Source: an uncultured Eubacteriales bacterium (lineage in GTDB: Bacteria > Acidobacteriota > Aminicenantia > Aminicenantales > Aminicenantaceae). From it: a stretch of DNA of 64,000 nucleotides. The position numbers and the translations under genes were made by a program. The stretch covers positions 46,800 to 110,799 of the forward strand of contig CAYNVQ010000006.1 of assembly GCA_964400735.1 (NCBI GenBank). Reading direction: 5' to 3'. Position 1 is the first letter of the stretch; every line of letters begins with the position of its first letter. The notes beneath the pieces were generated by a model. It saw nothing but the letters and a program-made list of their open reading frames with translations, was not told where the DNA came from and did no database searches. This document shows positions 19,350 to 54,341 of this stretch, one piece after another.

Positions 19350-19455
19350 TGTTGGGATCTTTACAAAATAATTACAAATTTCTTACATGGCCATGACAAC
19401 CCAGAGATTTAAAAAGCTTATCTTCGGAGTGAAACAAAATCCGAGGAGGCAAACG

Positions 19456-21546
19456 ATGAGAAAAATAACATCTTGGTTCGGCGCGATAGGGATTCTTGTT
19501 TTTGCGGTTTTATTGGGAGCGTTCTCTCAATCAGGAGAGGACCTGTTTCAGAAAGCGCTCCGGCTGGAAAGGAACGAAGGGAAACTCATTGAAGCCATCG
19601 AGCTTTACAACAGGGTGGTGGCTGAAGAGGGAAACAAGGAAATCGCTGCCCAGGCCCAACTGAGAATCGGCCTGTGCCATGAAAAGCTTGGAGAAAAAAA
19701 CACAAAACAGGCGCAGGAGGCATTCCAGAAAGTCCTCGACAATTTTCCTGGACAGATGAATGTTGTCAAAGTAGCAAAAGAAAAATTGTCAATCCTTCTG
19801 AGTGCCAAAAAAACCGCTCAAAAAGGAGCCGAAGAATTAAGCATCCGAAAGGTTATGTCACTAAGTATTCTGGGGGGGGCGTCTCCAGACGGGCGCCTGC
19901 TCTCCTATGTGGACTGGGAGACCGGTAATGGTGAACTTGCCACAATGGAGATAGCTACCGGAAAAAAAAGGCGCCTCACGCATAAGGACTCTGAGGATGA
20001 TCCTTGGCATATGGTCAGTCGTTCCATATTCTCTCCTGATGGAAAGAAACTCGCATTCACCCGATGGAAAGCCGATGATACGTTTGACTTCCGCATTATC
20101 AATGCGGATGGATCAGGACAGAGAGTTCTCTTAGACCATGAAGAAATATACTCTTTCCTGCCGAATGATTGGACAAAGGATGGGAAATATATTCTAGGGG
20201 TACTCCAAGAAATTGATAAAAAGAAAAATATCGCTTATGTATCTTCTGTTGATGGGAGTCTTCAAATCATTAAGGAGCTTGATAAAAGTTCCCCAGGAAT
20301 ATTGAGCATTTCTCCAGATGGACACTGGATCGCTTATGATTTTCCTCAGGATGAAAAATCAGATAGGCGGAATATCTTCCTTTTATCACAGGACGGAAGC
20401 CGCGAGATTCCTCTGTTAAAACACCCTTCCGATGACCGCTTGCTTGGCTGGGCCCCTGGAGGCGACTGGATTCTTTTTTCCAGCGATCGATCAGGAATCT
20501 GGGATGCTTGGATTATTCCTGTCAGTGAAGGAAAAACAAAAGGCGATCCCATTTTGGTCAAACAGGACTTTGGCCAGATGAAAGGAATAGGATTGCAGCC
20601 AATGGGATTTACTCAGGATGGTTCTTTTTACTTCGGCGATCTGGTGTGGCTGGAGAATATCTATCTGGCAGAAGTCGATATAGAAAAGATCGAAGTCTTG
20701 AAGCCACCTGAAAAAATGGCTCAACGGTTCGAAGGTTCCAATTGTGACCCGGTCTGGTCTCCTGATGGCCGGTCTCTGGCTTATCTTTCCAGACGGGAGC
20801 GTCATGGTCTGGAATCTAGCGCTATCTGTATCATGAAAATAGATTCAGGAGAGGAAATTGAGCTCTTGCCAAAGCTTAGAAATCTTGGGGGATTGAGATG
20901 GCTGCCTGATGGAAAATCCTTTATTGTTTTGGGAACGGATGAGAACGACGAGACCGGACTTTTCAGAATGGATGCCAGAACTGGTGAAATAGCTTTGGTA
21001 GTGACAGGAGATTCTGGATATCACGCTCTGAGATGTTCTCCTGACGGAAAAAAAGTCTTTTATGAAGCAGATGTTTGGAGGGAAAAGACTTTTCGTATCC
21101 TGATGTTTGACCTAGATACCCAACAAAAAAAGGAGGTTTACAGGAGCGAAGGGCAGATCCTTCGTATGGACATTTCTCCGGATGGAGAACAGCTGGTATT
21201 TTATGAGGGGATGGACAACACTATAAAGCTCATCTCCGTCGAGGGAGGACAACCAAAGAAGCTTTTGAAGATAGAAGACGGTGGTATCAATGGCGTGGCT
21301 TGGTCTCCAGGCGGGAAATATATATTGTTGTCTAAGATAATAAAAGGGGGCAAGACCGGAAAATGCGAACTGTGGCGGATTACGAGTGAAGGAGGAGAGC
21401 CCGAAAAGTTTGATCTTACAGGAGACGGCCTGATAGACTTGAATATCCATCCCGGAGGATCTCGTATTGCATTTACCCTGTGGCATGTAGATGAGGAAGT
21501 CTGGGTCATGGAGAACTTCCTGCCCAGAAACGAAAATAATAAATAG
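19456..21546 (+). CDS. Secreted TPR-like plus PD40 beta-propeller protein, module 3
   Basis: The preferred ATG at 19456 sits behind GGAGG and gives MRKITSWFGAIGILVFAVLLGAFSQ as signal peptide. The track start at 19387 is an upstream alternative. The family motif is AAQAQLRIGLCHEKLG. Repeats include SPDGK, WSPDGR and SPDGH. The C-terminus is VWVMENFLPRNENNK. Confidence 0.8.
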   Translation: MRKITSWFGAIGILVFAVLLGAFSQSGEDLFQKALRLERNEGKLIEAIELYNRVVAEEGNKEIAAQAQLRIGLCHEKLGEKNTKQAQEAFQKVLDNFPGQMNVVKVAKEKLSILLSAKKTAQKGAEELSIRKVMSLSILGGASPDGRLLSYVDWETGNGELATMEIATGKKRRLTHKDSEDDPWHMVSRSIFSPDGKKLAFTRWKADDTFDFRIINADGSGQRVLLDHEEIYSFLPNDWTKDGKYILGVLQEIDKKKNIAYVSSVDGSLQIIKELDKSSPGILSISPDGHWIAYDFPQDEKSDRRNIFLLSQDGSREIPLLKHPSDDRLLGWAPGGDWILFSSDRSGIWDAWIIPVSEGKTKGDPILVKQDFGQMKGIGLQPMGFTQDGSFYFGDLVWLENIYLAEVDIEKIEVLKPPEKMAQRFEGSNCDPVWSPDGRSLAYLSRRERHGLESSAICIMKIDSGEEIELLPKLRNLGGLRWLPDGKSFIVLGTDENDETGLFRMDARTGEIALVVTGDSGYHALRCSPDGKKVFYEADVWREKTFRILMFDLDTQQKKEVYRSEGQILRMDISPDGEQLVFYEGMDNTIKLISVEGGQPKKLLKIEDGGINGVAWSPGGKYILLSKIIKGGKTGKCELWRITSEGGEPEKFDLTGDGLIDLNIHPGGSRIAFTLWHVDEEVWVMENFLPRNENNK

Positions 21547-21631
21547 GGCATCAAAAAGCAGTAAAATCCACCTAAAATCAACCTGTTCTCAACACATATG
21601 GTATGGATTTGTACTATAATGTTAGCCGAGG

Positions 21632-24455: not shown

Positions 24456-24559
24456 GAAAGGCTCCACGGAAAATCCATGCAATATCCGATCAATCGTAAC
24501 CACAAAGCGAAAAAAAAGCATTATTATCCTCCTGTAAATAAAATTAAGGGAGGAATTCG

Positions 24560-33102: not shown

Positions 33103-33210
33103 AATTTTCACAACAAAAGCGCATCTCAATCGCAACAGAAGCTTAACCACGGGCTTTATGAGTTTTGATACGATTCCCTATGAAATGAAATTTTATAGGG
33201 AGGTCGAATA

Positions 33211-37087: not shown

Positions 37088-37090
37088 ACC

Positions 37091-38074
37091 ATGAAATGTG
37101 AAGATATCCAGAAAGAATTAAAGGCTTTTCTCGACGACGATATGGACGCTAGAAAAAAGTCCGAGATAAAGCAACACCTTGACCGCTGCTCGAATTGCTC
37201 AGAGAATTTGGAGCAACTCAAAAAACTGTCGGGAGTTCTTCACGTCTGGGAAGGAATCGAACCCTCTGTTCATTCTTATGAGAAGCTGAAAGCAAGGGTC
37301 GAATCCAAGAAATCGATCTGGGAAAGGGTTTTCACCTATTCCTTTGTAAAAAAGGCAGCGTTTCGGTTCGCAGAAATTGCAGCGGTTGTGGTTTTGACGC
37401 TGATCATCAGCCACTCGCTGCAAAAGCCGGCACCGGTCACCGGGAGCGATACGGACACGATCAATCTCTATCTGACAGAACACAGGGGGGCCGTGCTGAA
37501 TACCGTATCCGAGGAGCTTGCGCCCCAGACAGAAACCCGGATATCTGTACCTCCAGAGGACTTCTTGTACTACGAACACATAGAGGGTTTCCCTCGATAC
37601 ATAAGGCCCGGCGTGATCCTTAGAGGGCCATCCGAATACCAAAGGGAAATTCCAAAGCCTGATTCTCCTTCCATTTCAAAGGGAGAGATCCTCGATCTCC
37701 CTCAGGCGCGGAAAGCGGTGGATTTCGTACCCGTGGCCCCAATTAGACTTCATCCCGGTTACATTCTTGACAGCATCAGAAAAATCGAGGACTACAACAG
37801 TCTGCATCTGATTTACACCAATGGAATAAACACCTTATCGTTATTCGAACAGTCCCTCGATGGGAAGAAAGGCCTTGCTGCGCAGGACTTCAGGGAATAT
37901 GCCGTATACCGCAGTATCGAGACCGATGAGTTACCAATGTCAGGATCGGATAAAGCCACCATTCTCGCCTGGAGAAATGGTTCTGTTTCTTTTGTTTTGA
38001 TCGGGAATGAAGGAATGACCCGGTTGATGGACTTTGCACAGGCTATCAGCGCTGAGAGTAAAAATAGCCGCTGA
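37091..38074 (+). CDS. Putative zinc-finger (zf-HC2) anti-sigma factor, single TM helix
   Basis: It starts 4 nt after the sigma gene. The N-terminal anti-sigma domain carries an H-x3-C-x2-C motif, HLDRCSNCSENL. The TM helix is FAEIAAVVVLTLIISHSL. A periplasmic domain of about 200 aa follows. Confidence 0.7.
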   Translation: MKCEDIQKELKAFLDDDMDARKKSEIKQHLDRCSNCSENLEQLKKLSGVLHVWEGIEPSVHSYEKLKARVESKKSIWERVFTYSFVKKAAFRFAEIAAVVVLTLIISHSLQKPAPVTGSDTDTINLYLTEHRGAVLNTVSEELAPQTETRISVPPEDFLYYEHIEGFPRYIRPGVILRGPSEYQREIPKPDSPSISKGEILDLPQARKAVDFVPVAPIRLHPGYILDSIRKIEDYNSLHLIYTNGINTLSLFEQSLDGKKGLAAQDFREYAVYRSIETDELPMSGSDKATILAWRNGSVSFVLIGNEGMTRLMDFAQAISAESKNSR

Positions 38075-38150
38075 ATGCATGAATGATCATTGACTGCTGA
38101 TCATTTGTGGATTCCGTGAGAGCGAAACTTCCGTAAAGGAGAGGACAATT

Positions 38151-40445
38151 ATGTGCAAAAGATGTTTAATTCTGTCTATAATAAGTTTAGCTGCAGGCTT
38201 TTTTTTGTTGGCACAACCGGCCACATTTTGTTTTGGAGCCCAGAGTTTTGAGAGTCCCCTTCAAGATCTGGATAAATTAGCGAATCAGCACTTCAAAAAG
38301 GCTATAGACCTTCTCAAGCAGACCCAGTACCAGGATGCCATTGCCGAGTATGAAAAGGTTATCAGCCTGCTTCCGGACAGCGAGATCGCTCTGGATGCCT
38401 GGTATTGGATCGGACAGTCTTACTTCCAGATGGGAAAACATGATGAGGCGCTATCCATCTTTCAAAAGCTCATCCAGGAATATCCTTCGAGTGCGATCGC
38501 TCCTGTCACGCAATTGATGGTCGCTCGCGTTGAGAAAGAGAAAGAGCTCAGCAAGGTCAGAGAAAACAGAGAGTCATCTTCCGATATAAAAGTTATCACC
38601 GATCCCAAAACCGGAGTGGAATATCATAAAATCGGAGCACTCACAGGAAAAAAGGATGTGATCGACCATTCATGGGTACTTAGCCTTTCTCCCAATGGCA
38701 GGTTTTTGCTTTATGAAAATCTTGTGATCCCGCTAAATGAAGAAGAGCCCTTCAATCTTGTGGACATGGACGCTGCGCGCGGGATCTGGTCTCCCGACGG
38801 AAAAAAGGCCGCATTCTACACACCAGATGGGCCCATCTGGATCGTTCCTGTCTCTCCAGAGACGGGGCGGGCAACAGGTTCCCCAAAAAAGCTCCTCGAC
38901 ATTAATTTCGGATGGCAGGGACCTGTTTCTTGGTCGCCTGATTCGGAAAAAATCGTTTTCTTTGGGACAGGGGGAGAATACAAGGGTAACATTTGGACTA
39001 TCTCGGTCGAGGATGGAACGCTGACACAGATCACGGATGATCCTGTGTTTGAGATGAATCCCAGATGGTCGCCAGATGGAAAAACTATCGCCTACAACAA
39101 AAGCCGTTCTGAGATATGGGCAGTCTCTCCTGATGGGGGAAACCCGCGGAAAATTATTGATATCGGTCGTGGGAGTCCTGTTGCCTGGTCACCAGACAGC
39201 AACTGGCTATTATTTTTGGCCCCTGAAATGAAGTACCGTCTCTACCGTTTCGCTGATGGGAGAGTGTTTGATATAAATCAACCCATTGGATTTCGGGCTT
39301 TTTTTTCCTGGTCGCCAGATGGAAAAAATTTACTTTTTTATCGCTCATCCTATGAATATTCTTGTGTTCTCAGGGTCGTTTCAACCTCCGGTGGCCCATC
39401 CTTCGAGCTTGGTAGAGAACTCAAGCTTTGGCCTTATGTCCACCACTGGTCTCCTGATAGCAGGATGATTATCACAAAAGGGGGCTATCCTATTGAAAAA
39501 AGATATTCGGACGATCTTGCCTTCTGGATGGTTCCTCTTGCAGGCGGTGAGGCCAGATACATAGAGCTGGATGTTCCAGGTGTGGGCAAACCTCAGCCTC
39601 ATTCTCTATCGCACGACTGCAAGAAGCTTCTTTTATTTGAGAAGCAGAGTGAGGATAAAGAAGATCTTTACGTGGTGCCGGTTTCGCTCAAGGATGCGCG
39701 GCCCACCGGGAATGCAATCAAAGTTTTCGAAGGACGGGATAAAAAACCTGTTGGCTTCGGCAGGAGGGACGAATGGGCCTGGTCTCCAGATGGGAAAAAA
39801 CTCGCGGTGGTTCATGGAGGAGATATCTGGGTCACATCTGCAGAAAAAGGGAATCCGGCAAATATCACACAATCCCCGGAACACGAGTCCTTCCCAGTAT
39901 GGTCGCCTGATGGCAAGATGATTGCCTATACCGCCAGTTCTGGTGAAGAAGGAGAAGATAGCCTTCATATCATCCCCGCATCCGGCGGGAAGGCGAAGAA
40001 AATATTGGACAAATCTGATAAGGATGAGTTTGACTGGTCACCAGATGGAAAGGAGCTGGCCGTTATCTCTGAAGGGAAGATCTCAATCATTCCAATTTCT
40101 GGAGGGAAAACCCAGGAGATTTTTGATCTTGAGAAATTCCACATTAAGCGCGTCCAAACGCTTAGTTGGCTGCCAAACGGGAAGCACTTTGCCTTTATCG
40201 GCGAGAAAGAAAAAGAATATGGAATCAGAAATCGGATATACTTGGTCTCTGAAAAGGGAGGCAGAGTCATAGAGTTGGCCGCAGATGATAACAACACAAA
40301 GGATTGGCTCTATCCCTCTCCGGATGGGAAATGGATTTCCTATGATTCCGAAGGTGAAGCAAAGGTTCGTTCCGAAGGAACCATCTGGGAAGTCGATCTC
40401 GAAGAGCTCATTAAGGCAAAAAAGAAACAAGAAAATTTAAAATAG
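38151..40445 (+). CDS. Secreted TPR plus PD40 beta-propeller protein downstream of the ECF sigma/anti-sigma pair; divergent family member
   Basis: The RBS is aaggagaggacaattATG and a signal peptide is present. The N-terminal TPR units include YQDAIAEYEKVISLLPDSEIALDAWYWIGQSYFQMGKHDEALSIFQKLIQEYP. Many WSPDGK, SPDGG and SPNGR repeats are present. It lacks the AKAQLxIGxCYEKLG and MENFLP motifs of the module-linked paralogs. Confidence 0.75.
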   Translation: MCKRCLILSIISLAAGFFLLAQPATFCFGAQSFESPLQDLDKLANQHFKKAIDLLKQTQYQDAIAEYEKVISLLPDSEIALDAWYWIGQSYFQMGKHDEALSIFQKLIQEYPSSAIAPVTQLMVARVEKEKELSKVRENRESSSDIKVITDPKTGVEYHKIGALTGKKDVIDHSWVLSLSPNGRFLLYENLVIPLNEEEPFNLVDMDAARGIWSPDGKKAAFYTPDGPIWIVPVSPETGRATGSPKKLLDINFGWQGPVSWSPDSEKIVFFGTGGEYKGNIWTISVEDGTLTQITDDPVFEMNPRWSPDGKTIAYNKSRSEIWAVSPDGGNPRKIIDIGRGSPVAWSPDSNWLLFLAPEMKYRLYRFADGRVFDINQPIGFRAFFSWSPDGKNLLFYRSSYEYSCVLRVVSTSGGPSFELGRELKLWPYVHHWSPDSRMIITKGGYPIEKRYSDDLAFWMVPLAGGEARYIELDVPGVGKPQPHSLSHDCKKLLLFEKQSEDKEDLYVVPVSLKDARPTGNAIKVFEGRDKKPVGFGRRDEWAWSPDGKKLAVVHGGDIWVTSAEKGNPANITQSPEHESFPVWSPDGKMIAYTASSGEEGEDSLHIIPASGGKAKKILDKSDKDEFDWSPDGKELAVISEGKISIIPISGGKTQEIFDLEKFHIKRVQTLSWLPNGKHFAFIGEKEKEYGIRNRIYLVSEKGGRVIELAADDNNTKDWLYPSPDGKWISYDSEGEAKVRSEGTIWEVDLEELIKAKKKQENLK

Positions 40446-40484: not shown

Positions 40485-40508
40485 ATGACATTTTCGTGAC
40501 ATTTTGAC
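40485..40508 (+). promoter_or_regulatory. Direct-repeat element ATGACATTTTCG-TGACATTTTGAC upstream of HK6
   Basis: This is a TGACATTTT direct repeat with 11-bp periodicity, about 65 nt upstream of the HK6 start. The same 17-mer ATGACATTTTCGTGACA recurs at 43274..43290, upstream of the module-6 PD40 gene. The 11-bp spacing is typical of OmpR/PhoB-family binding sites. Confidence 0.35.
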
Positions 40509-40571
40509 TTCTGCCTTTTATTAGAATATTCTTGTTACCAGGGTTAACTAGCTAGAGACATCCGTTTCGAC

Positions 40572-42542
40572 ATGAAAAGCCGGAGTCACCGCAAACAAAT
40601 CCTTCTCTTCTTAGTCACAGTACTTTTGCCTAGTTTGGTGCTAATCGGCTTGACGGTGCGGATGATCGGGCAGGAGAAGGAGCTGGCGCAAAAGCGGATG
40701 GCAGAGGAGCGCCGACGCATTGCCCGTGAAATCGGCCAACACTTCCTGGTAAGGTTGGAAAACATCAAACTTCAAGAGGTGAGTGCTTTATCAGAACTTC
40801 AGCTCTTATCTACTGAAATAAATTACGTAAATCCGGAAGTGGTTCTTATCTGTCAGGTTGATGGACGTCAACTCGTCCTGCCCTGGGAGAGAAATCGAGA
40901 GACAGAAAATGCCGGGCGATACTTGAGTGACACTTCGTTTGCCCAAAAGATTCGGCAAGCCGAAGCAGAGGAATTCGCACAGAAAAATTACACTCGGGCG
41001 GCCAGCTTGTATCAGCAGGCCTTGAACTCTGCGAAATTTCCCATCCAGAAGGAATATGCAAGGCTTTTGTTCGCGCGTGCACTTTCCAAATCGTCCCAAA
41101 AAGCCAAGGCTTTGGAAAATTACCGGGAAATTTTGAAGCTGCCATTCATTCTATCGGATGAGTACGGAATACCTTTATCATTGTATGCTGCCGGGCGCCT
41201 TCTCGAATATGAAGAGGATTATGAAGACGTTTTAGGCCATATCCAAAAAGAAATCCAAAAGGAACATTGGCTGTCTCCTTCAGGATCTTATCTTCTTCTG
41301 GATCTGCTTGAGGATTTTCTCCGGACTGATCCAGAGGCTGAGATACGAAAAGCGGCAAACGACTGCAAGGAGCTGATTCAAAAACACATTCGAAAATTGG
41401 AACAGGCCATGGCCCTCCAGAGTGATTTTCTAACCTTAGGAGTGGCAGCTAGTCAAAATGATCAGACAGAGAGAGAAAATCCTCTCTGGGTCTTGTACGG
41501 AAGCAATCCATGGCTGGTCAGTCTTTCAGCCTCTATGTCCGATAGGCCCCCCGTTCTGGTTGCTGTATCTTCCAAAGAGATCATGGCTTCCCTTAGGGCA
41601 GACAGCGGCTTTGAGGAGGCTTTTCCAGTGGATTTCGACATCGTTTCCGAAAATGACCCTGATGGATTATCATTAGGTCCGAATTTTCAGGGCTTAGCCA
41701 TCTCTTTTATAGGGAATCAAGAGCAAATGTTTTCGACTCCTTGGAGCATCCAACCCTCTTTTTATCTACTCGCCCTGCTTCTCATCCTGGGGATCACCTT
41801 GTTTGGAGCCTATCTGCTGTGGAGAGATGTGCGTCGTGAAGTGCAGATGGCCGAGATGAGATCGCAGTTCGTCTCCAGTGTCTCCCATGAGTTGAAGACA
41901 CCTCTGACCGCCATCCGGATGTTTGCCGAGACTCTCCGCTTGGGCCGTTCAAAGGATACCAAAACCCAGAACGAGTATTTGGACACCATCGTCAACGAAA
42001 GCCAGCGTCTCACCCGGCTTCTCAACAATGTCCTGGATTTTTCGAAGATCGAACAGGGAAAACGTTTATACCGTCCTGAATTGGCTTCGCTGTATGAGAT
42101 CGTCGAATCTGCGGCCCGGGCCATGGAATATCCCCTCAGCCAGCAGGGGTTCAGGCTCGATGTGCAGACCGAGAAGGATTTGCCAAATGTTCATGTGGAT
42201 CGTGATGCCATGGAACAAGCCCTTTTGAATCTCCTCCACAATGCCATGAAATACTCGGGGGAGTCGAAGGAGATCGGCCTTCATCTGAAAAGAAAGGAAA
42301 GCCAAGCTTTGATCCAGGTGATCGACCAGGGAATAGGCATCGACCCACAGGAACAGAAACGTATCTTCAAGAAGTTCTACCGTATTCCTTCGCCCGAAAA
42401 CGAGCGAATCGTGGGCACAGGCTTGGGTTTGGCGCTGGTCTCCCATATCGTCGAAGCCCACGGAGGCCATCTTGAACTGGATAGCACTTTAAATAAAGGG
42501 AGCACCTTCTCTATTTATCTTCCCTTGGAGAAAGAAACATGA
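40572..42542 (+). CDS. Sensor histidine kinase, module 6; paralog of HK3
   Basis: The N-terminus MKSRSHRKQILLFLVTVLLPSLVLIGLTV is collinear with HK3. The sensor domain carries EAEEFAQKNYTRAASLYQQAL and YGIPLSLYAAGRL. TM2 is FYLLALLLILGITLFGAYLLW. The H-box is [21 protein letters not shown] is present. Confidence 0.85.
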   Translation: MKSRSHRKQILLFLVTVLLPSLVLIGLTVRMIGQEKELAQKRMAEERRRIAREIGQHFLVRLENIKLQEVSALSELQLLSTEINYVNPEVVLICQVDGRQLVLPWERNRETENAGRYLSDTSFAQKIRQAEAEEFAQKNYTRAASLYQQALNSAKFPIQKEYARLLFARALSKSSQKAKALENYREILKLPFILSDEYGIPLSLYAAGRLLEYEEDYEDVLGHIQKEIQKEHWLSPSGSYLLLDLLEDFLRTDPEAEIRKAANDCKELIQKHIRKLEQAMALQSDFLTLGVAASQNDQTERENPLWVLYGSNPWLVSLSASMSDRPPVLVAVSSKEIMASLRADSGFEEAFPVDFDIVSENDPDGLSLGPNFQGLAISFIGNQEQMFSTPWSIQPSFYLLALLLILGITLFGAYLLWRDVRREVQMAEMRSQFVSSVSHELKTPLTAIRMFAETLRLGRSKDTKTQNEYLDTIVNESQRLTRLLNNVLDFSKIEQGKRLYRPELASLYEIVESAARAMEYPLSQQGFRLDVQTEKDLPNVHVDRDAMEQALLNLLHNAMKYSGESKEIGLHLKRKESQALIQVIDQGIGIDPQEQKRIFKKFYRIPSPENERIVGTGLGLALVSHIVEAHGGHLELDSTLNKGSTFSIYLPLEKET

Positions 42543-43228
42543 AACGGATTCTGATCGTCGAAGATGATGTGGCGATCCTGCGGGGGCTCAAGGACAACCT
42601 CGAGTATGAATCCTACGAGGTGATGACAGCCACGGATGGAGAACAGGGGTACTGCCTGATCCAGGAGAAAAAACCCGACTTGATCATCTTGGATTTGATG
42701 CTTCCCAAGATGAGCGGATACGAACTCTGCCGGAAAGTCCGTAAGGATGGAATCACGACGCCTATTCTGATGCTGACGGCAAGAGGGGAGGAAGTGGACC
42801 GGGTGCTGGGATTGGATTTGGGTGCCGATGATTATGTCACCAAGCCTTTTTCCGTGCCTGAGTTGCTGGCCAGGATACGGGCTATCATCCGCCGGGTCCA
42901 TCAGGCTAAGACAGGCGATTTGCCCAGCGATTTGCGGTTTGGCGATGTCGTCATAGATTTCAAGTGTTTTGAAGCCCGAAAGGACGAAAAGGTTTTGGAC
43001 TTGTCCCGCAAGGAATACGGCGTGCTCCGGCTTCTGGCTGCACGGGCGGGTGAGGTGGTAACCCGCGATGAGCTGCTGGATGAAGTGTGGGGTTATGACC
43101 AGTATCCCACCACACGAACAGTGGACAACCACATCTCTTTGCTGCGCACAAAACTCGAGGATGACCCATCTAATCCACACCACCTGATTACCGTTCATGG
43201 AGTCGGCTACAAGCTGGTTCTCGATTGA
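42539..43228 (+). CDS. OmpR-family response regulator, module 6
   Basis: MKRILIVEDD is present, with an ATGA overlap to HK6. The C-terminus is TVHGVGYKLVLD. Its closest paralog is RR3. Confidence 0.9.
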   Translation: MKRILIVEDDVAILRGLKDNLEYESYEVMTATDGEQGYCLIQEKKPDLIILDLMLPKMSGYELCRKVRKDGITTPILMLTARGEEVDRVLGLDLGADDYVTKPFSVPELLARIRAIIRRVHQAKTGDLPSDLRFGDVVIDFKCFEARKDEKVLDLSRKEYGVLRLLAARAGEVVTRDELLDEVWGYDQYPTTRTVDNHISLLRTKLEDDPSNPHHLITVHGVGYKLVLD

Positions 43229-43273
43229 TTCAGTTTTATTCTGCGGTTTGCCTCAGGGCAAAATTCGATAGAT

Positions 43274-43290
43274 ATGACATTTTCGTGACA
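43274..43290 (+). promoter_or_regulatory. Second copy of ATGACATTTTCGTGACA plus further GACATTTTG/TTTCGTGA repeats upstream of PD40 gene 43415
   Basis: The 17-mer is an exact match to 40485..40501. Additional TTTCGTGA (43303..43310) and GGACATTTTGCG (43330..43341) lie in the same 185-bp intergenic region. Confidence 0.35.
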
Positions 43291-43414
43291 AAAAACAGAA
43301 GGTTTCGTGAAAAACTTTTTACATAAAAAGGACATTTTGCGGAAAGTCTGATGACACAATTCAAAGCTGAAAGCGCTAGATTAGGGGTGAAAGCAAAATG
43401 AAAGGAGAGACTCC

Positions 43415-45580
43415 ATGAAAAAATTTTCAATCTTAATCGCCATTTTGACCCTATTGGCTTTCAGCTTCGGAAGTCTTGCCGTACAGAACGGATACGATCT
43501 ATTTCAGAAGGCGCTGGCTAAAGAACGTGCGGAAGGGAATCTTGGTGAAGCCATTGCCCTTTACCAAAAGGTCATCCAGGAATCCAAAGACGAATCCTTA
43601 GCCGCCAAGGCCCAGCTCCGCATCGGCATCTGCTACGAGAAGCTGGGCAGAATCGAAGCCCAAAAAGCCTACCAGAAGGTTATCGATAATTATCCTCGAC
43701 AGCTTGATTCTGTCAAAGCCGCAAAGGAAAAATTATCTAATATAATGAGAGTCCAGACAGCTGCAAAAAAAGATATCAAGGGATTAAGTATCCGCAAGAT
43801 TTGGGAGTCTCCTAAATTTGGCAGGGGGAATCTAGGTGAAGTTTCTCCTGATGGCCGGTATTTATCCTTAACGGATTTAGGCGGAAGAATCGCAGCCTAT
43901 GAGTTTTCAACCCATAAAACACATTACATAACAAGCAAATTTTTTGATGAAAAAAAACAAGGCGCTTCTGAAACTGGAAATGAAACATTTATAAAGGGTT
44001 GGCTTCCTTTATGGTCGCCTGATGGAAAAAAAATGGCTTTCAGCAGGGAGAAATCCTCTGAATTATGCATCTTTGGTTCTGACAGCGCTGAACCTATTGT
44101 CCTTTATAAAGCCAAAGGGGAAGAGCAAGTTATTCCCATCGATTGGTCACCCAAGGGTAATACCATTTTGGCCACTTTAGCAAAAGACTATGAGGCCTTT
44201 CAGGCCGTTTTAATTTCTGTTCCGGATGGCTCGGTTCGGATAATAAAAACATATGAAAAACCACCACGCAGCGAACCGAGAAGACTGGGAATATTTTCGC
44301 CTGATGGCCGGTATATTGCGGGGGATTTTAAACCTCAGGAAAACTCTCGATCTCGAGATATCTATATTCTCTCAGCAGATGGAACCAGCGAAATTCCTCT
44401 TGTCGTGCACCCAGGCGATGACCTGGCGCTTGGGTGGTCCCCTGACGGGAAGACAGTTGTTTTTGCCAGCAACCGGAGCGGAACGTGGGACATCTGGACT
44501 ATTGATGTTATCGAAGGGAAACCGCAGGACGATCCGAAATTGATCAAGGGTGAAATAGGCAGTGTGTGGCCTTTGGGTTTCACAGAAAGAGGATCTTTCT
44601 ACTATTTGTTGGAGAGCGATTTAACGGATATTTTTACAGCTGGTCTAGATGCTGGGAATAATTCTCTGTCTTCTCCAAAAAAAGCGACACAACGTTTTGT
44701 GGGCAGAAACGTGTTTCCTGAGTGGTCACCAGACGGGAAATTTTTATCCTATGTTTCGCAACGAGGTGCAGGGTATGATCAGCACGCCTCAAGATCCCCA
44801 CTGTGTATCCGCTCAATGGAGACGGGTGCTGAACATGAAATTGTGCCTGAGCTGAGATATATTTGGGGACCCCGCTGGTCGCCTGATGGACAATCTATTC
44901 TTGTGGTGGGGAGTGAAGAAGAAGGCAGGGAAGGATTTTACAAAATCGATGTCCATACGGGAGAGATTACATCCATATTGCAGTTTGATTTCGGTGATAG
45001 ACTCAGTGAACCCGAGTGGTCCCATGACGGAAGAGAAATTTTCTACACCTATGAGAAGGAGAAACAAAAAGAAGCCCAAATCATAGCCTATAATCTTGAA
45101 ACCAAAGAAAAAAAGGAAATTTACAGGGGCGAGTTCAATCCATCCTATATAGTTGGCCGAAATGCCTTTTTTGCCCATGATTTGGCGCTTTCTCCTGATG
45201 GAAAATCATTAGCGTTTAATAAAGGATGGTCACCTGTACTTATGGTTGTGTCCACCGACGGAAGAGAGGCCCGTGAAGTGTGGCGGATGAAAGGAAAGGG
45301 TGAACAGATTTCAACAGTCGACTGGATGCCCAACGGAGAGGAATTAATTTATGTGTCTACTCAACTACCTTATAGAGAAATAGATGAGACGTGGAAAATA
45401 GCTGTTGATGGTGGTGAGCCAAAGAAACTGGGGTTGTCTATGGAGAGAGTTCACTGGCTGTCTGTTCACCCGGATGGACATCAAATTGTTTTTAGCTCTA
45501 TCCAAAGAATCAAGGATGTTTGGATGATGGAGAATTTCCTTCCAGCAGAAGAAAAAGGGAGCAAAGGAGGGCAGAAATGA
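43415..45580 (+). CDS. Secreted TPR-like plus PD40 beta-propeller protein, module 6 copy A
   Basis: The RBS is gagagactccATG with aaaggagaga upstream. The signal peptide is MKKFSILIAILTLLAFSFGSLA. The family motif is AKAQLRIGICYEKLG. WSPDGK, SPDGR and HPDGH repeats are present. The C-terminus is VWMMENFLPAEEKGSKGGQK. Confidence 0.8.
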   Translation: MKKFSILIAILTLLAFSFGSLAVQNGYDLFQKALAKERAEGNLGEAIALYQKVIQESKDESLAAKAQLRIGICYEKLGRIEAQKAYQKVIDNYPRQLDSVKAAKEKLSNIMRVQTAAKKDIKGLSIRKIWESPKFGRGNLGEVSPDGRYLSLTDLGGRIAAYEFSTHKTHYITSKFFDEKKQGASETGNETFIKGWLPLWSPDGKKMAFSREKSSELCIFGSDSAEPIVLYKAKGEEQVIPIDWSPKGNTILATLAKDYEAFQAVLISVPDGSVRIIKTYEKPPRSEPRRLGIFSPDGRYIAGDFKPQENSRSRDIYILSADGTSEIPLVVHPGDDLALGWSPDGKTVVFASNRSGTWDIWTIDVIEGKPQDDPKLIKGEIGSVWPLGFTERGSFYYLLESDLTDIFTAGLDAGNNSLSSPKKATQRFVGRNVFPEWSPDGKFLSYVSQRGAGYDQHASRSPLCIRSMETGAEHEIVPELRYIWGPRWSPDGQSILVVGSEEEGREGFYKIDVHTGEITSILQFDFGDRLSEPEWSHDGREIFYTYEKEKQKEAQIIAYNLETKEKKEIYRGEFNPSYIVGRNAFFAHDLALSPDGKSLAFNKGWSPVLMVVSTDGREAREVWRMKGKGEQISTVDWMPNGEELIYVSTQLPYREIDETWKIAVDGGEPKKLGLSMERVHWLSVHPDGHQIVFSSIQRIKDVWMMENFLPAEEKGSKGGQK

Positions 45581-47706
45581 GAAAAGCAGAGATTTTGGCA
45601 GCAGTTCTAATTTTAATTGGCTTTAGCGTTACAACTCTCGCCCTCCAAAACGGCTATGACCTCTTCCAGAAAGCTCTAGCCAAGGAACGGGCAGAAGGAA
45701 ACCTTGAGGAAGCCATCGCCCTTTTCCAGAAAGTCATCGAGGAATCCGAAGACGAATCCTTGGCTGCCAAGGCCCAGCTCCGCATCGGCATCTGCTACGA
45801 AAAGCTGGGGCAGGAAAAGGCAAAATTGGCTCAGGAGGCTTTTCAGAAGGTGCTCGAAAATTATCCGCAACAAGTCGATACTGTCAAAGTAGCCAGAGAA
45901 AAGCTGTCGGGTCTCTTGAGAGCTCAAGTGCTTATGGAAAAAAATGTCGAAGGGTTAAGCCTGCGTCATCTATTGATGCCATCGGGAAGAGGGGAAGATT
46001 TTGGCATCGGCGAATTCGTATCTCCCGACGGAAGGTTCTTCGCTTATTTTGATTACAACGCCGGGGCCGTAGGCATCTATGAGCTGGCAACAGGAAAAAA
46101 GCAGCTGTTAAAGAGCAAGATTAAAGAGGATGAGCCGTGGGGAGAGAGTTGGCAATTGATCTGGTCTCCCGACAGCAAAGCGCTCCTCTGCAACTGGTGG
46201 CAGACGCCGGATTACCATTGGTCCGATCTGCGAATCATCCGCCTTGATGGGACAGAACAGCGGTCTGTCTTCCGCTCTGAGGAATATGACGAAGTCTATC
46301 CCATGGATTGGTCCTCAGACGGAAGCCAAATTCTCGCGGTCTTCTACGGAGATTTTCCAGAAGGGAAAAAAATAGGTCTCATCTCTGTTAAAAACGGATC
46401 TGAACGCATCTTGAAAACCAGCGATTACGGATGGGCGCACATGAAATTTTCGCCGAATGACAGGTACATTGCATACGACTATTACTCTCAAGAAGAGCAC
46501 TACAACCGTAATATTGCTATCCTTTCAGCAGATGGAAAAGTGGAAATCCCGCTGGTCACACATCCAGCACAGGACTCTCTTGTGGGCTGGTCTCCCGACG
46601 GAAAGTATGTGCTCTTTACAAGCGACAGGACAGGGACAAATGATCTTTGGCTGATCCCTTTCAAAGATGGGAGAGCTGCAGGGAATGTACGATTGATCAA
46701 AGAGGGATTGGGGAAAATCGATGTGGGCGGAATAACCCAAAATGGATCTTTGTATTATATATCTGGGGGGCAGATGGAGGATATCTATGTTGGCGAATTG
46801 GATTGGGTTTCCGGAAAAGTCGATATAGCCCCGGAAAAAATGACCTTTTCACAGGAAGGGAGCAACTCTTGGCCTCAATATTCTCCGGATGGGAAGTCCA
46901 TCGTTTGTGTTCAGGGAGGCGGAATTATGGCAGAGCAGGCAGAAACATCGCTGTGCGTCCGTTCTTTGGAAAATGGCATAGAACGAAAATTTGCGTTGAA
47001 GATGCAGGCTCGACTTCCGCGATGGTCTCCAGACGGCCGCTTTATTTATTTCACATCATTTGATCGTCCCCGTCATTGGAGCATCTTTCGGGTTGAATTA
47101 AGAACAGGTCAGGTTTCGAAATCCTGGCCAGAAGATTTTGGAAGCAAACCAATCGGCAATGTTTTTGTTGGGATTTCTCCTGACGGCAAGAATTACTACT
47201 ACATTCGTTGCGATGAACAAGACAAATACAGCCGACTTGTTGTCCGGGATCGGGGGACAGGGAGCGAGAAAGAGCTTTTACGCAAAGTTATGACGCTCAT
47301 TGTAGCTTCCTTATCTCCTGATGGGAGATGGCTTGCTGTGACCAGTCGGGAAGAAGAAAGGGCGATCCTGATTGTGCCGTCAGAAGGAGGAGAGCCTCGA
47401 GAACTGTGTCGATTCAACCTCAAAGGAGGGCATCCTACATGGCTCGATTGGACTCCTGACAGCCAATCCATCATTTTCAGCAGAAGGATCGATGAGTCAA
47501 AATCTGGGGTTTCGGGGTGGGGACTGTATCAAGTCTCTATTGATGGAGGAGATCCTCAGTTCCTGGGAATCAGCACAACATATATTTCAGATTTCGATGT
47601 CCACCCCGATGGAAAACAACTCGCTTTCGCCTCTTATGGTCCCGAATGGAAAGAAGCCAAGCTGTGGGTGATGGAGAATTTCCTCCCTGATACTGAGAAA
47701 AAATAG
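45577..47706 (+). CDS. Secreted TPR-like plus PD40 beta-propeller protein, module 6 copy B; tandem paralog
   Basis: The ATG at 45577 sits behind AAGGAGG and forms an ATGA overlap with the stop of the upstream paralog. The signal peptide is MRKAEILAAVLILIGFSVTTLA. The first ~60 residues are almost identical to copy A: QNGYDLFQKALAKERAEGNL.EAIAL.QKVI.ES.DESLAAKAQLRIGICYEKLG. The C-terminus is LWVMENFLPDTEKK. The track start at 45520 is an upstream extension. Confidence 0.8.
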   Translation: MRKAEILAAVLILIGFSVTTLALQNGYDLFQKALAKERAEGNLEEAIALFQKVIEESEDESLAAKAQLRIGICYEKLGQEKAKLAQEAFQKVLENYPQQVDTVKVAREKLSGLLRAQVLMEKNVEGLSLRHLLMPSGRGEDFGIGEFVSPDGRFFAYFDYNAGAVGIYELATGKKQLLKSKIKEDEPWGESWQLIWSPDSKALLCNWWQTPDYHWSDLRIIRLDGTEQRSVFRSEEYDEVYPMDWSSDGSQILAVFYGDFPEGKKIGLISVKNGSERILKTSDYGWAHMKFSPNDRYIAYDYYSQEEHYNRNIAILSADGKVEIPLVTHPAQDSLVGWSPDGKYVLFTSDRTGTNDLWLIPFKDGRAAGNVRLIKEGLGKIDVGGITQNGSLYYISGGQMEDIYVGELDWVSGKVDIAPEKMTFSQEGSNSWPQYSPDGKSIVCVQGGGIMAEQAETSLCVRSLENGIERKFALKMQARLPRWSPDGRFIYFTSFDRPRHWSIFRVELRTGQVSKSWPEDFGSKPIGNVFVGISPDGKNYYYIRCDEQDKYSRLVVRDRGTGSEKELLRKVMTLIVASLSPDGRWLAVTSREEERAILIVPSEGGEPRELCRFNLKGGHPTWLDWTPDSQSIIFSRRIDESKSGVSGWGLYQVSIDGGDPQFLGISTTYISDFDVHPDGKQLAFASYGPEWKEAKLWVMENFLPDTEKK

Positions 47707-49055: not shown

Positions 49056-51146
49056 CTATTTTTTGCCTTCCGGCAGAAAGTTTTCCATGACCCAGTATTC
49101 CGGGTAGGGCATGGAAAATCCTTCAGATGAAAATACGATCTCGTTGCCATTTGGGTGAACTTGGGGTTCGTCCGGATCGAGCATGGATAAACCAACCTCG
49201 AGCAATTCTCCTCCGTTGAGCGGTATGCGGCAAAACGCTTCTTGTCCCAATACATCTGATTTTTTGAAAAAGAGAATATATTGGCTGTCCGGAGTCCAAG
49301 TTAAGGCAATTGGAGCGCCCCCTCGTTGGTTGAACCGGCAGAGCACGCGCGGCTCTCCTCCTTCCGCAGGAATGATCTTCAGCTCCCGATCCAATTCACG
49401 CCCAATAAAGGCCAGCCATTTTCCATCTGGCGAAAGGGAAATATTCGCATAAGAGTGGGATGTCTGGTGTATTTTTTTCCTTTTTTCCGTTTCAAAATCG
49501 TAACGGCATATGAGGTCATTAGATTTGCCCTTTTCCCCTTGAATGTAAAAGAAAAATTTTCCGTCTGGTGTCCATTCACTGAAACGGTATTCTTCTTTTT
49601 CGGACGGCTTCGGCAACAGGATAGCTTTTATATCTTCTGTCTGAACATCGATCCTGAAGATTCCAGTCAATCTGGATTCGGTGATTCCCGATAAAAGAAT
49701 AGCTCGACCATCCGGAGACCACCGTGGATAGAAGGCTTTCACGTTAAGAGAGAATGTTTTCTCTTTTCCTGATCCCAGAGAGCGAATATGCAGGGATGAG
49801 CTGTAATGTCCAAAAGAACCACGAATGTAAGCCAGGTTTTTTCCATCAGGCGAATAGGCTGGGAAATCGTTGCTCCCCTCAGATGGGAGGTCCATCTTTT
49901 CTGGTGGATTTTGAATCTCTCCGGTCTCTGGATCGAGTGAAGAGGTGTAGATATCTTCCATCTCCTTTGAAGACATAAAATAAAAGGAGCCATCTTTACT
50001 GAAACCCAATGGAGTATTTACCGCTCCTCTTTTTACCAATAGGGGATCCCCTTGTGTTTTTCCATCGCTGATTGAAACTATCCAGGCATCGTCGGATCCC
50101 AATCGGCTGCTTTGAAAAAGAATCCATCGCCCATCAGGTGACCATCCGAGCATTTTTTCATTTGCAGGGTGCTCGATCAGAGGAATCTCTCTGCTTTCCT
50201 CCATAGCATACAGGTAAATATCGCTTTCAGGGCTTTTCTCCTCTTGAGGTTTTTCATAAGCGATATATCGGCCGTCTGGGGATATGTTTGTATTTCTTCC
50301 CAATTTAATTGGAATGGCTTGTGTTGTTTTATCCTTCAGAGACAACACCGCCCTTTGGTTTTCAAGCCCGTCTTTTGATAAAGCGATCAGAATTTGTTCA
50401 CCGTCAGGAAACCAGTCCAGCGGCCAGGCATACGCGATTTCTTCATTCTTATAGACCGTATAAGGTTTTTTATCTTCAATTCCTATGATTCTAATGTCTG
50501 AAAAAGACTTTCCGTGCCACCAATCATAGACAATCTTTTTTCCATCCGGGGACCAGGTGGAATAAAGGGGATAGCCAATTTCATTCTTTTGGTCGGTAAG
50601 AAGCTGTTTCTTTCCGGTGGTGAGATCTCGGATGGCCAGATTGTTCGTTTTCCAATCCACGATCGAGACATATCGTCCATCAGGGGAGACAGCACCCAGC
50701 CACCCGTCATAGAGGGTATCCGGTCCGGATACCAACTGCCTGACTTTTAATCCAGTGTCCCCTCTCTCGACGACTGCTCGAGCTCTAGCAAGAACAGAGA
50801 GTTTTTTGTTGGCCATTTTGACCGCTTCTGCCTGATCGGGATAGTTATCCACGACCTTCTGGAAAGCATTCTGGGCCTGTCTCAAACCCAGTTTTTCGTA
50901 ACATATCCCTACGAAATATTGTGACTTGGCGGCGTATTCTCTTTCGTTCGGATATTTGGCGATGATCTCCTCGAAGAGCTCGATGGCTGCGTTGAGATCT
51001 CCTTTGGTTTCCATGGTGTACTTGGCCTTTTCGAAAAGCACCTTGTGCTCTGAGGAGTTCTGGAACCCAAAGGCTGTGAAGATAAAGGCGGCCGCAAATA
51101 TGGCAAATAATGGAATGATTTGAATTAAAGTTTTTTTCCGGCTCAT
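49056..51146 (-). CDS. Secreted TPR-like plus PD40 beta-propeller protein, module 7, reverse strand
   Basis: The preferred start is the ATG at 51146..51144 behind GAGGAGG, giving MSRKKTLIQIIPLFAIFAAAFIFTAFG as signal peptide. The track start at 51233 is upstream in frame. The TPR-like N-domain includes AKSQYFVGICYEKLG. WSPDGK, SPDGR and HPNGN repeats are present. The C-terminus is YWVMENFLPEGKK. Confidence 0.8.
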   Translation of the reverse strand: MSRKKTLIQIIPLFAIFAAAFIFTAFGFQNSSEHKVLFEKAKYTMETKGDLNAAIELFEEIIAKYPNEREYAAKSQYFVGICYEKLGLRQAQNAFQKVVDNYPDQAEAVKMANKKLSVLARARAVVERGDTGLKVRQLVSGPDTLYDGWLGAVSPDGRYVSIVDWKTNNLAIRDLTTGKKQLLTDQKNEIGYPLYSTWSPDGKKIVYDWWHGKSFSDIRIIGIEDKKPYTVYKNEEIAYAWPLDWFPDGEQILIALSKDGLENQRAVLSLKDKTTQAIPIKLGRNTNISPDGRYIAYEKPQEEKSPESDIYLYAMEESREIPLIEHPANEKMLGWSPDGRWILFQSSRLGSDDAWIVSISDGKTQGDPLLVKRGAVNTPLGFSKDGSFYFMSSKEMEDIYTSSLDPETGEIQNPPEKMDLPSEGSNDFPAYSPDGKNLAYIRGSFGHYSSSLHIRSLGSGKEKTFSLNVKAFYPRWSPDGRAILLSGITESRLTGIFRIDVQTEDIKAILLPKPSEKEEYRFSEWTPDGKFFFYIQGEKGKSNDLICRYDFETEKRKKIHQTSHSYANISLSPDGKWLAFIGRELDRELKIIPAEGGEPRVLCRFNQRGGAPIALTWTPDSQYILFFKKSDVLGQEAFCRIPLNGGELLEVGLSMLDPDEPQVHPNGNEIVFSSEGFSMPYPEYWVMENFLPEGKK

Positions 51147-51242
51147 GGTGAAACCTCCTCGTTTTGATCTTTCACCATTCAATTTAACTCTTTTCCTCCC
51201 GCCTGCTGTCAAACAAACATAAACAAATGTCAAAGAATGTCA

Positions 51243-51929
51243 TCAGTCCATGAATCTGTAGCCTTCTCCGTAAACTGAAAGGATATGCCGGGGACGGGAG
51301 GGGTTCTCTTCGATTTTTTTTCTCAATTTCAAAATATGATTGTCTATGGTGCGGGTGGTGGGGAATTTCTCGTATCCCCAGATTTTATCCAGTAAGTCAT
51401 CCCTTTTGACCACTTCTCCCGGATAGGAAAGAAAATATCTGAGGATTTCCGCTTCCAGCGAAGTCAAATCCCACTCCTTTCCTGCACGCCTTATCTTGAA
51501 ATGGTTGAAGTCGATCTCCACATCTCCGAGAGTGTAGATATCTGGTATGGATCTGGTGCTTCTCTGTTCCCGTCTCAGGTGGGCCTTTATCCGTGCCAGA
51601 AGCTCGCGGATGCTGAAGGGCTTGGTGATGTAATCGTCGGCGCCGATCTCCAGCCCTACCACTTTATCGATCTCTTCTCCTTTGGCCGTGAGCATGATGA
51701 TGGGAGTGCCGATCTTTTTTTCCCTGAGCTGGCGGCAGACCTCCAGCCCGTCCTTTTTGGGGAGCATGATATCCAGGATGATCAATGCCGGTCTTTCTTT
51801 AAAGACTCGCTCGAGCCCCTGCTCTCCATCGGATGCCCAGGCTACATGATACCCCTCATCCTCCAAATTAAGCCTCAGTCCTTTGACCAGGTCCTCTTCA
51901 TCTTCGATGATCAATATCTTTTCTTTCAT
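51243..51929 (-). CDS. OmpR-family response regulator, module 7
   Basis: [13 protein letters not shown] is present. The phospho-acceptor lies in [19 protein letters not shown] is present. The C-terminus is [11 protein letters not shown]. Confidence 0.9.
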
Positions 51930-54047: not shown

Positions 54048-54341
54048 GGTCTATTTACGATTTAATCCCTAAGCCTTGTCTGTGAGACGCCGTTAACACA
54101 TATCATTTATCCTGTAAAAAAGGAAGATTGTATTCACGGCCACCTTTTTTCATTATACCTGACGCCAAAAGGCAAATGTCAAAAAAATGTAAAAATCTTG
54201 ATCCGCTTTTTCGCTTTTTTGCATGTTGCATTTTTTTTGTTGAATTGATATTCTTTAACAGAATTTAAAGGGTGAGATTCTCATTCGACTAAAACAACAT
54301 AGTCCGAGAGATAAGTATGTACTGACGATCGAGATAAAAAG

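Follow-up and report, generated by a model that had tools for sequence, protein, structure and literature searches.

In a 64,000-nucleotide stretch of DNA from an uncultured Eubacteriales bacterium (lineage Aminicenantaceae; assembly GCA_964400735.1, contig CAYNVQ010000006.1), seven modules of the same design each comprise a histidine kinase (HK) gene, a response regulator (RR) gene and one or two PD40 genes. Short words found in front of the HK gene recur in the spacer between the RR and PD40 genes of the same module, and the question raised by this locus is what these words are. A sequence-only reading of the stretch (hereafter the window, i.e., the whole 64 kb analyzed) had suggested that each RR autoregulates its operon and also drives an internal promoter for its PD40 gene. 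Here, we conclude that the words very probably belong to conserved operators of the OmpR/PhoB-family RR of the same module, placed at the operon promoter and at the internal PD40 promoter. The elements are related in sequence, phased, conserved in related loci and oriented with the gene downstream, and they co-vary with the recognition helix of the neighboring regulator. The modules, whose numbers are also carried by their proteins, are:

1724-6827, plus strand, module M1
11391-16510, plus strand, module M2
16672-21546, plus strand, module M3
21632-26734, plus strand, module M4
30243-35313, plus strand, module M5
40572-47706, plus strand, module M6
54047-49056, minus strand, module M7

In all seven HKs (656-728 aa), two transmembrane helices flank an outside domain of 370-420 aa. 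The HK stop and RR start abut or overlap, the RRs are 228-234 aa long, and the TPR plus PD40 beta-propeller proteins of about 700 aa begin with signal peptides and have propellers resembling TolB. The proteins of module 6 are:

40572-42542, plus strand, HK6, with two transmembrane helices, an extracytoplasmic domain of ~370 aa, HisKA and HATPase_c
42539-43228, plus strand, RR6, with a receiver domain and a Trans_reg_C winged helix
43415-45580, plus strand, PD40-6, with a signal peptide, TPR repeats and a TolB-like beta-propeller
ATG at 45577 to the module end at 47706, plus strand, PD40-6b, with a signal peptide, TPR repeats and a TolB-like beta-propeller

The ATG of PD40-6b overlaps the stop codon of PD40-6 as ATGA (45577-45580), through which the two genes are translationally coupled. 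HisKA and HATPase_c domains were found in both HK6 and HK3, and in RR6 and RR3 both PF00072 and PF00486 scored above the gathering score (111.6 and 94.7 bits given). An N-terminal receiver with a C-terminal Trans_reg_C domain, encoded beside an HK with HisKA and HATPase_c, is the architecture of the OmpR/PhoB family, and the pairs are classical extracytoplasmic-sensing kinases with receiver/winged-helix regulators. The seven regulators could be aligned over their full length, and common to all are the GxGY of the wing and the ILD...LP stretch of the receiver, in which members of the family have the acceptor Asp. When RR6 was scored against named equivalogs (PhoB, YycF/WalR, RpaB, MtrA, OmpR, KdpE and others), RpaB and YycF were the top-scoring families. 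The NCBIfam cut-offs (in brackets) were not reached by YycF at 232.5 (340), RpaB at 224.6 (330), MtrA at 219.5 (300) or PhoB at 216.7 (296). With every named-family score below its cut-off, RR6 was ruled out as a PhoB, WalR or RpaB equivalog and therefore belongs to an unnamed regulator subfamily.

All of the strings listed by the sequence-only reading were found in their places. The 17-mer ATGACATTTTCGTGACA lies at 40485-40501, before HK6, and at 43274-43290, before PD40-6, with no third copy in the window, and the HK6 copy continues, as had been proposed, as a direct repeat in 11-bp phase, i.e., TGACATTTT at 40486 and 40497. Further words are TTTCGTGA at 43303 and GACATTTTG at 43331 in module 6, CCATGACAAC at 16633 and 19391 in module 3, AATCGCAAC at 30011 and 33128 in module 5, and TCAATCGTAACCACAAAGC at 24490 in module 4. 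The copy of CCATGACAAC at 19391 is covered by the listed PD40-3 open reading frame (19387-21546), which is over-extended; a GGAGG Shine-Dalgarno sequence and a signal peptide mark ATG 19456 as the true start, and the copy is intergenic as the earlier reading had assumed. Likewise, the listed TTG 51233 of PD40-7 is over-extended, the true start being ATG 51146 with a strong Shine-Dalgarno sequence and a signal peptide. Given these corrected starts, the operator arrays of both modules fall in true intergenic DNA.

The simplest rival is that short AT-rich intergenic sequences share such words by chance and without function. We compared the longest word common to each HK-upstream region and its own RR-PD40 spacer with 1000 first-order Markov shuffles. 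The 17-mer of module 6 was matched in 0/1000 shuffles and the 11-mer of module 7 in 20/1000, whereas the 10-mer of module 3 (62/1000) and the 9-mer of module 5 (206/1000) were not significant alone, and nor were the 8-mers of modules 1, 2 and 4. Non-matching module pairs also shared words of 10-11 nt, and periodicity within the single sequence was weak, both as chance would have it. Thus, by the shuffled-sequence criterion that the earlier reading had set, only the module 6 word survives as a plain word-sharing result, and exact-word sharing was given up as the sole statistic. The phased pattern is another matter. TKACA-N6-TKACA has eight matches in the window against 0.14 expected, a number that 0/100 shuffles reached; the matches lie upstream of HK3, in the RR3-PD40-3 spacer (three), upstream of HK6, in the RR6-PD40-6 spacer, upstream of HK7, and at 29902 upstream of module 5, and all are intergenic and on the strand of the gene downstream. 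CAAC-N6-TYAAC has three matches against 0.76 expected, upstream of HK4, upstream of HK5 and in the RR5-PD40-5 spacer. The shared words are fragments of these 11-bp-phased direct repeats, and from their place in the sites the words of modules 3, 4 and 5 are genuine parts of conserved sites, though they lack significance in isolation. The elements of module 6 are:

40486..40507, plus strand, HK6-upstream operator, two 11-bp direct-repeat units TGACATTTTCG and TGACATTTTGA
40522-40527, plus strand, first HK6 core promoter candidate, TAGAAT, 19 nt past TGACAT (TA[GA]AAT conserved in orthologs)
40504-40509 and 40527-40532, plus strand, second HK6 core promoter candidate from a promoter scan, TTGACT, 17 nt, TATTCT
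40572, plus strand, HK6 start, ATG
43229..43273, plus strand, optional insert of ~45 nt from the RR6 stop to the array, with a small hairpin TTTGCCTCAGGGCAAA at 43247-43262
43275..43362, plus strand, RR6-PD40 array of eight 11-bp units starting at 43275, 43286, 43297, 43308, 43319, 43330, 43341 and 43352, whose first five bases are TGACA, TGACA, AGAAG, TGAAA, TTACA, GGACA, GGAAA and TGACA
43377..43417, plus strand, candidate PD40-6 internal promoter and start, with -10-like TAGATT at 43377-43382, 19 nt past TGACAC
43404-43409, plus strand, Shine-Dalgarno GGAGAG of PD40-6, with the ATG at 43415

Conservation was assessed in ~80 related metagenome loci (109 modules, 94 non-redundant regulators), obtained as contigs encoding RR6 orthologs and by a metagenome scan with HK3, with 14-29 distinct orthologous loci per module in the comparison. 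Metagenomes contain many RR6 orthologs of 78-97% identity, which the sources name Candidatus Aminicenantes; HK identity among the fetched loci was 52-93%, i.e., these are not near-identical strains. A scan of a genome collection with RR6 was dominated by the universal DDYVTKPF word and proved unhelpful: the 80 OmpR-family loci that it returned were unrelated to the modules, did not exceed 53% identity, and lacked both a PD40 neighbor and a related HK sensor. In the orthologous loci the motifs are the best-conserved non-coding columns, while the flanks and neighboring genes vary: module 6 HK-RR pairs are preceded by a PD40 gene, a molybdopterin oxidoreductase gene or a PIN/RHH toxin pair. The HK6 site is conserved as ATGACAtTTTCrTGACAT, followed by TA[GA]AAT, in every genomic context, and in 22 distinct orthologs the mean pairwise identity of its 17 nt was 0.93, compared to 0.34 in the 25 nt upstream and 0.51 in the spacer. 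This persistence of HK-upstream sites despite changed flanks and neighbors supports the proposal that each RR would autoregulate its operon. Taken together with the 17-mer and the phased pattern, near-invariance in dozens of diverged orthologs whose flanks cannot be aligned leaves chance a practically negligible explanation.

The two copies of the 17-mer are 100% identical, as would be expected if they stemmed from recent duplication or gene conversion rather than from selection on a binding site. However, the identity stops abruptly at both edges, and both sites are present in orthologs with 78-97% RR6 identity, in which the spacer site usually reads TTTTCA and the HK-upstream site TTTTCG. 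This difference means that the two sites persist independently, and we regard duplication as extremely improbable.

The RR6-PD40 spacer could be aligned gap-free over ~110 nt in 28-29 distinct orthologs, with eight 11-bp units throughout, so that a unit of one helical turn (10-11 bp) is held without indels in the 11-bp register in 29 distinct orthologs. The consensus of units 1-4 is TGACATTTTCa / TGACAaaaa.c / AGAcaatTtca / TGAaA.aa.Tt and that of units 5-8 is TT.Ca.AaAAA / tgACATTtt.. /.gAca...t.a / TGACACATtct. Units 1, 2, 6 and 8 are strong and units 3, 4, 5 and 7 degenerate and extension-like; the words at 43303 and 43331 are units 3/4 and unit 6, respectively. In a phase test that left out the two anchoring units, units 3-8 of the 29 orthologs matched TKACA (at most one mismatch) in 4.59/6 cases at phase 0, compared to at most 0.52 at other phases. 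After the array, conserved cTA.aTTa, GGAG and ATG columns follow at a fixed distance. Such conserved arrays, each followed at a fixed distance by a -10-like hexamer and then by a Shine-Dalgarno sequence and ATG, argue for the predicted internal PD40 promoter. Across the modules, the sites consist of direct, not inverted, repeats of a 5-7-bp half-site, with 2-8 units per site on one strand.

The insert between the RR6 stop and the array is absent from most orthologs, in which the array begins at, or a few bases past, the stop codon, and is present in a subset (loci L117, L134, L135, L138, L143 and L147); in many orthologs the RR6 stop TGA forms the first three bases of half-site 1 (TGA-CA). The hairpin at 43247-43262 was rejected as a terminator: the scan found none there, it has no T-run, and most orthologs lack it. 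No Rfam family reached its gathering score anywhere in the window, and the RR-PD40 spacer as a known RNA element was rejected.

A second rival holds that the repeats are core promoter parts only, i.e., a sigma-70 -35 (TTGACA), UP-like A/T tracts and phased bends, or else sites of an alternative sigma factor. TGACA is contained in TTGACA, the proximal unit stands at the expected -35 position, the spacers are T- or A-rich and phased such that they could bend DNA, and an extracytoplasmic function (ECF) sigma/anti-sigma pair is encoded just upstream of module 6 (36497-38074). Nevertheless, up to eight units reach ~90 bp upstream of the -10, well past a -35; the pentamers are conserved while the spacers vary (units 2 and 5-7); the CAAC-type units of modules 4 and 5 resemble no -35; and the motif class changes with the recognition helix of the neighboring regulator. 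Core promoter function alone is thus very unlikely to account for the sites.

This relationship between motif and helix links the motif classes to the neighboring regulators. The recognition helices form three classes: modules 3, 6 and 7 have TTRTxDNH, modules 4 and 5 have SPRTxDxHIVHLR, and modules 1 and 2 have RTxDSHxANIR. The TKACA motif occurred with the DNH helix only (40/41 HK-upstream regions, 43/52 spacers), the CAAC motif with the HIVHLR helix only (7/9 and 3/9), and the TTCAYA motif with the DSHxxNIR helix only (7/12 and 7/11), with zero off-diagonal cases among the 94 non-redundant regulators. In 875 kb, 158/183 TKACA pairs with a spacer of 5 or 6 fell within module control regions, and most of the others belong to modules missed by the parser. 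Within the DNH class the groups show fixed differences, i.e., TTACAA/TGACAA for M3, TGACAT for M6 and TTACAT/TGACAT for M7, and the module-specific spacers TTCC and TTTTCG are kept in their respective orthologous groups. The recognition helix of RR6 aligns residue for residue with that of Escherichia coli PhoB, in which R201 is a base-contacting residue in the PhoB-DNA structure. V197/R200/R201 of PhoB correspond to N/S/L in RR6, and the equivalent of R201 is group-specific: RR6 has L, RR3 has Q, RR7 has K, RR1/2 have N and RR4/5 have H. Since the residues at these positions differ, the base contacts must differ. The earlier proposal that paralogous regulators have diverged in specificity gains support here, in that motif class tracks helix class and the half-site differences in the DNH group parallel the R201-equivalent residue, which would be expected of such divergence.

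Under a third rival, the sites are operators of a protein other than the adjacent regulator: one master regulator of the OmpR family would serve every TKACA site, or RR3, RR6 and RR7 would regulate each other's modules heavily. Such readings fit the slight differences among the half-sites of modules 3, 6 and 7, the M3-like triple site upstream of module 5 (29902-29928), and the M6-type sites that precede an unrelated gene for a 46-aa peptide in other loci. Set against these points, module-specific half-sites and spacers are kept per group along with the R201-equivalent residue, the class-level matrix of motif and helix has no off-diagonal entries, and each site stays with its own HK-RR pair through changes of genomic context. 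We consider this rival unlikely overall; partial cross-regulation within the DNH class is the form in which it stays live.

In the mechanism proposed for operators of the same-module RR, each operator is made up of 11-bp direct repeats whose half-sites span 5-6 bp: modules 3, 6 and 7 have T(G/T)ACA, modules 4 and 5 a (T/G)CAAC-like form, and modules 1 and 2 TTCACA/TGAACA. One monomer would bind per unit, head to tail, which would place all monomers on one helix face. Upstream of HK6, the single two-unit site is predicted to hold one head-to-tail RR6 dimer; it would abut or replace the -35 of the operon promoter and mediate autoregulation, most likely positive. The RR-PD40 arrays, of eight units in module 6 and four in modules 3, 4, 5 and 7, end 18-20 nt before a conserved -10-like hexamer, and tandem dimers of phosphorylated RR on the array would recruit RNA polymerase to the internal promoter. 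Compared to transcripts reading through from the HK promoter, this would give stronger PD40 expression, and the threshold would probably differ. With a single dimer site before the sensor operon and four tandem ones before the cargo, the two are likely to differ in the threshold at which their sites become occupied.

This design has precedents. E. coli PhoB reportedly binds the pho box as head-to-tail dimers on direct repeats, and OmpR and RstA of E. coli, Bacillus subtilis PhoP and HLR1 of cyanobacterial RpaB are comparable direct-repeat systems. Streptomyces coelicolor PhoP recognizes 11-nt direct-repeat units, at least two of which are needed, in operators near the -35; besides two-unit operators there are complex ones with at most six units, where binding starts at well-conserved core units and extends cooperatively to weak extension units (PMC2275107). 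The module 6 array, in which units 1, 2, 6 and 8 are strong and the other four weak, resembles such a complex operator, although it is longer, with eight units, and the half-site is T(G/T)ACA or CAAC-type rather than GTTCACC. The modules also differ from Streptomyces PhoP in having no link to phosphate genes, RR6 is no PhoP/PhoB equivalog, and binding is demonstrated for Streptomyces PhoP, whereas here it is inferred from sequence. Mycobacterium tuberculosis PhoP binds as head-to-tail dimers on direct repeats, one to three in tandem, and the proximal dimer overlaps the -35 and replaces the contact of sigma region 4 (PMC11825685). Acinetobacter baumannii BfmR recognizes TTACA direct repeats, several of which lie in its own promoter, with positive autoregulation (PMC11806355). 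The BfmR spacer is 5 bp (10-bp period), compared to 6 bp (11-bp period) in modules 3 and 6, and periods of both 10 and 11 bp occur in the module 7 array; BfmR acts globally, whereas each RR here seems mainly dedicated to its own module of three or four genes.

Several points weigh against assigning the sites to their own regulators in this way. Binding by the cognate RR, the transcription starts, activation over repression, and cooperativity are predictions of the model. The words of modules 3 and 5 are not significant alone, as given above, and autocorrelation of the window alone at lag 11/22 is weak (p ~0.05-0.07, not significant after correction for lags), as are the degenerate units 3, 4, 5 and 7; single-sequence autocorrelation was set aside as proof of an eight-unit array, which is established by the orthologs. 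A TAxAAT or TAxxTT hexamer is conserved 18-20 nt past the last half-site in every module, with two registers possible at HK6, and this distance is long for a true -35. The TTGACT-17-TATTCT candidate promoter overlaps the HK6 site, an arrangement that would be compatible with repression. The sites of modules 3, 6 and 7 are alike enough for possible cross-binding, and the M3-like site at 29902 hints at some cross-wiring of modules. In addition, the ortholog counts are not independent events, the lineages being related, and the three motif patterns were derived from the same sequence family that was used for testing and are hence circular.

Beyond module 6, the corresponding elements are:

16625-16646, plus strand, HK3-upstream operator, TTACAATTCCA and TGACAACTGAG, the second unit reading TGACAAC
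16660-16665, plus strand, TAAAAT in the HK3 extended -10 TGATAAAAT, 18 nt past TGACAA, with the ATG at 16672
19361..19458, plus strand, RR3-PD40-3 array, TTACA 19361, TTACA 19372, TTACA 19383 and TGACA 19394
19419-19424, plus strand, PD40-3 -10-like TATCTT, with Shine-Dalgarno GGAGG at 19445 and the ATG at 19456
21567, 21578 and 21589, plus strand, units of the HK4-upstream operator, TCCAC / TCAAC / TCAAC
21615-21620, plus strand, HK4 -10, TATAAT, with the ATG at 21632
24463..24527, plus strand, RR4-PD40-4 spacer, TCCAC 24463, TCCAT 24474, a weak unit at 24485 and GTAAC 24496
24522-24527, plus strand, RR4-PD40-4 -10-like hexamer, TATTAT
30015-30036, plus strand, HK5-upstream operator, GCAACTTTAAC and TCAACCTTCCA, GCAAC-N6-TCAAC
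30049-30054, plus strand, HK5-linked hexamer, TATAAA
33110..33174, plus strand, RR5-PD40-5 array, ACAAC 33110, GCATC 33121, GCAAC 33132 and TTAAC 33143
33169-33174, plus strand, PD40-5 -10-like TACGAT, with the ATG at 33211
54152..54192, minus strand, HK7-upstream operator, TTACATTTTTT and TGACATTTGCC, TTACA 54192-54188 and TGACA 54181-54177
54157-54152, minus strand, HK7 -10, TATAAT, 18 nt past the operator in the layout TTACATTTTTT-TGACATTT
51144..51245, minus strand, RR7-PD40-7 array of four units, beginning at the RR7 stop codon (TGATGACA)
51242-51238, 51232-51228 and 51211-51207, minus strand, TGACA units of the RR7-PD40-7 array, a weak unit standing before the last, in 10/10/11-bp steps
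51146, minus strand, PD40-7 ATG, preceded by TTAAAT and Shine-Dalgarno GAGGAGG
1633-1643, 4596-4612, 11302-11328 and 14294-14310, sites of M1 and M2: before the HK, conserved TTGACAGAATC-TTCACACTTCC-TTAAC; in the RR-PD40 spacer, TCTTCACACTTCCTGAACACAT and then TATATT, with the pattern T(G/C)CA(C/T)A-N5-T(G/T)(A/G)ACA

The sites of M1 and M2 are an operator type of their own that lay outside the sequence-only reading. Site identity in orthologs was 0.95 upstream of HK3 (14 distinct orthologs), 0.93 for module 4 and 0.96 for module 2, and the HK7-upstream site was identical in 4 orthologs. The phased units of the RR4-PD40-4 spacer end in GTAACCAC, and the TCAATCGTAACCAC reported earlier lies inside this spacer; TTCAATCGTAACCACAAAG is kept in 4/5 RR4 orthologs, the exception being locus L108 with TTTAAT. 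The HK5 operator lies ~190 nt before the HK5 ATG at 30243, and HK5 orthologs carry TCAAC-N6-TTAAC-N6-TCAA at a similar position.

The -10 hexamers of HK3 and HK4 stand merely 6 and 11 nt before the ATG (16660-16674; 21615-21634) and are conserved in orthologs. At so short a distance, kinase transcripts would have almost no leader or none at all, which could hold sensor levels low relative to cargo; the PD40 genes, by contrast, have long leaders with GGAGG. The 730-nt spacer that precedes M5 contains an M1/2-like site (TTACATTTCCTAAACACA, 29805-29822) followed by TATATT and the M3-like triple half-site (TTACAATTTCTTTACAATATCATGACG, 29902-29928) followed by CATAAT at 29947, both upstream of the module's own operator at 30015; these sites of foreign type may be cross-wiring or relic promoters. 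Near the HK5 start (30150-30243), TTGACT-17 nt-TACATT is conserved between the window and locus L097; in addition to the operator-linked promoter at 30049, it could provide another one further downstream that does not depend on the regulator.

Further elements were seen at module borders and in relatives. Directly upstream of module 6 (36497-40445), genes for an ECF sigma factor and a zf-HC2 anti-sigma factor are followed by a further TPR/PD40 gene, an arrangement that recurs in locus L082; an ECF pair in place of a two-component system may control some PD40 paralogues. In relatives (L111:5011-5356, L104:6230-6575, also L097 and L113), the gene for a predicted membrane peptide of 46 aa (MSQDVVLMDMLGSAFRIITFSAIALFAVALIVVLWLCCTDQKYPDN) is preceded by an M6-type site and a composite site, TCTTCACAC/TCAAC-N6-TCAAC; this peptide gene was sought in the window and is absent from it. 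The 18-nt element GGGGACGGTTCTATTTTT has six copies in the window with at most three mismatches (734, 1513, 16521, 16586 on the minus strand, 35306 on the minus strand and 47713 on the minus strand) compared to 0.13 expected. Every copy lies just 3' of a gene or module end, and related loci often carry the element at their module borders; as a terminator it was rejected, its folding z-scores of -0.4 and -0.8 being unconvincing.

Across loci L082-L089 and L112-L156, HK6, RR6 and both operators are kept, whereas the downstream PD40 genes are not orthologous: their identity to PD40-6 ranges from 25 to 90%, and the best match in the window is variously PD40-6, PD40-6b or PD40-4. It seems that the exported propellers are either swapped between loci or much faster in evolution than the unit that controls them. 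Somewhat doubtful, though worth stating, is the wider idea that the seven or more modules together make up a sensor array that can be expanded and whose members are insulated from each other, with operator and helix co-diverged at the R201-equivalent (L, Q, K, N, H), the cargo exchangeable and cross-wiring limited. If true, this would provide a natural 'recognition code' series for OmpR-family DNA binding, a conserved sensor-regulator-operator chassis re-used for freely exchanged, fast-evolving exported TPR/beta-propeller cargo, and a deliberate but limited cross-wiring, as in the M3-like site before module 5 and the M6-type sites before the 46-aa peptide gene.

A literature search for these modules in Aminicenantes gave nothing relevant among the papers covered. 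Direct-repeat operators, autoregulation and a cargo promoter are a design already known, and no new regulatory principle is involved; what is notable is the clean paralogous series. For at least seven two-component systems of Candidatus Aminicenantes, a sediment lineage that is widespread but uncultured and in which no regulator is known to have been studied, the analysis predicts operators at the level of sequence, and the two-unit operon site as against the eight-unit cargo site predicts threshold or hierarchy behavior. The paralogous set, with its matched changes in helix and half-site, would serve as a panel for studying how OmpR-family regulators avoid cross-talk at the level of DNA.

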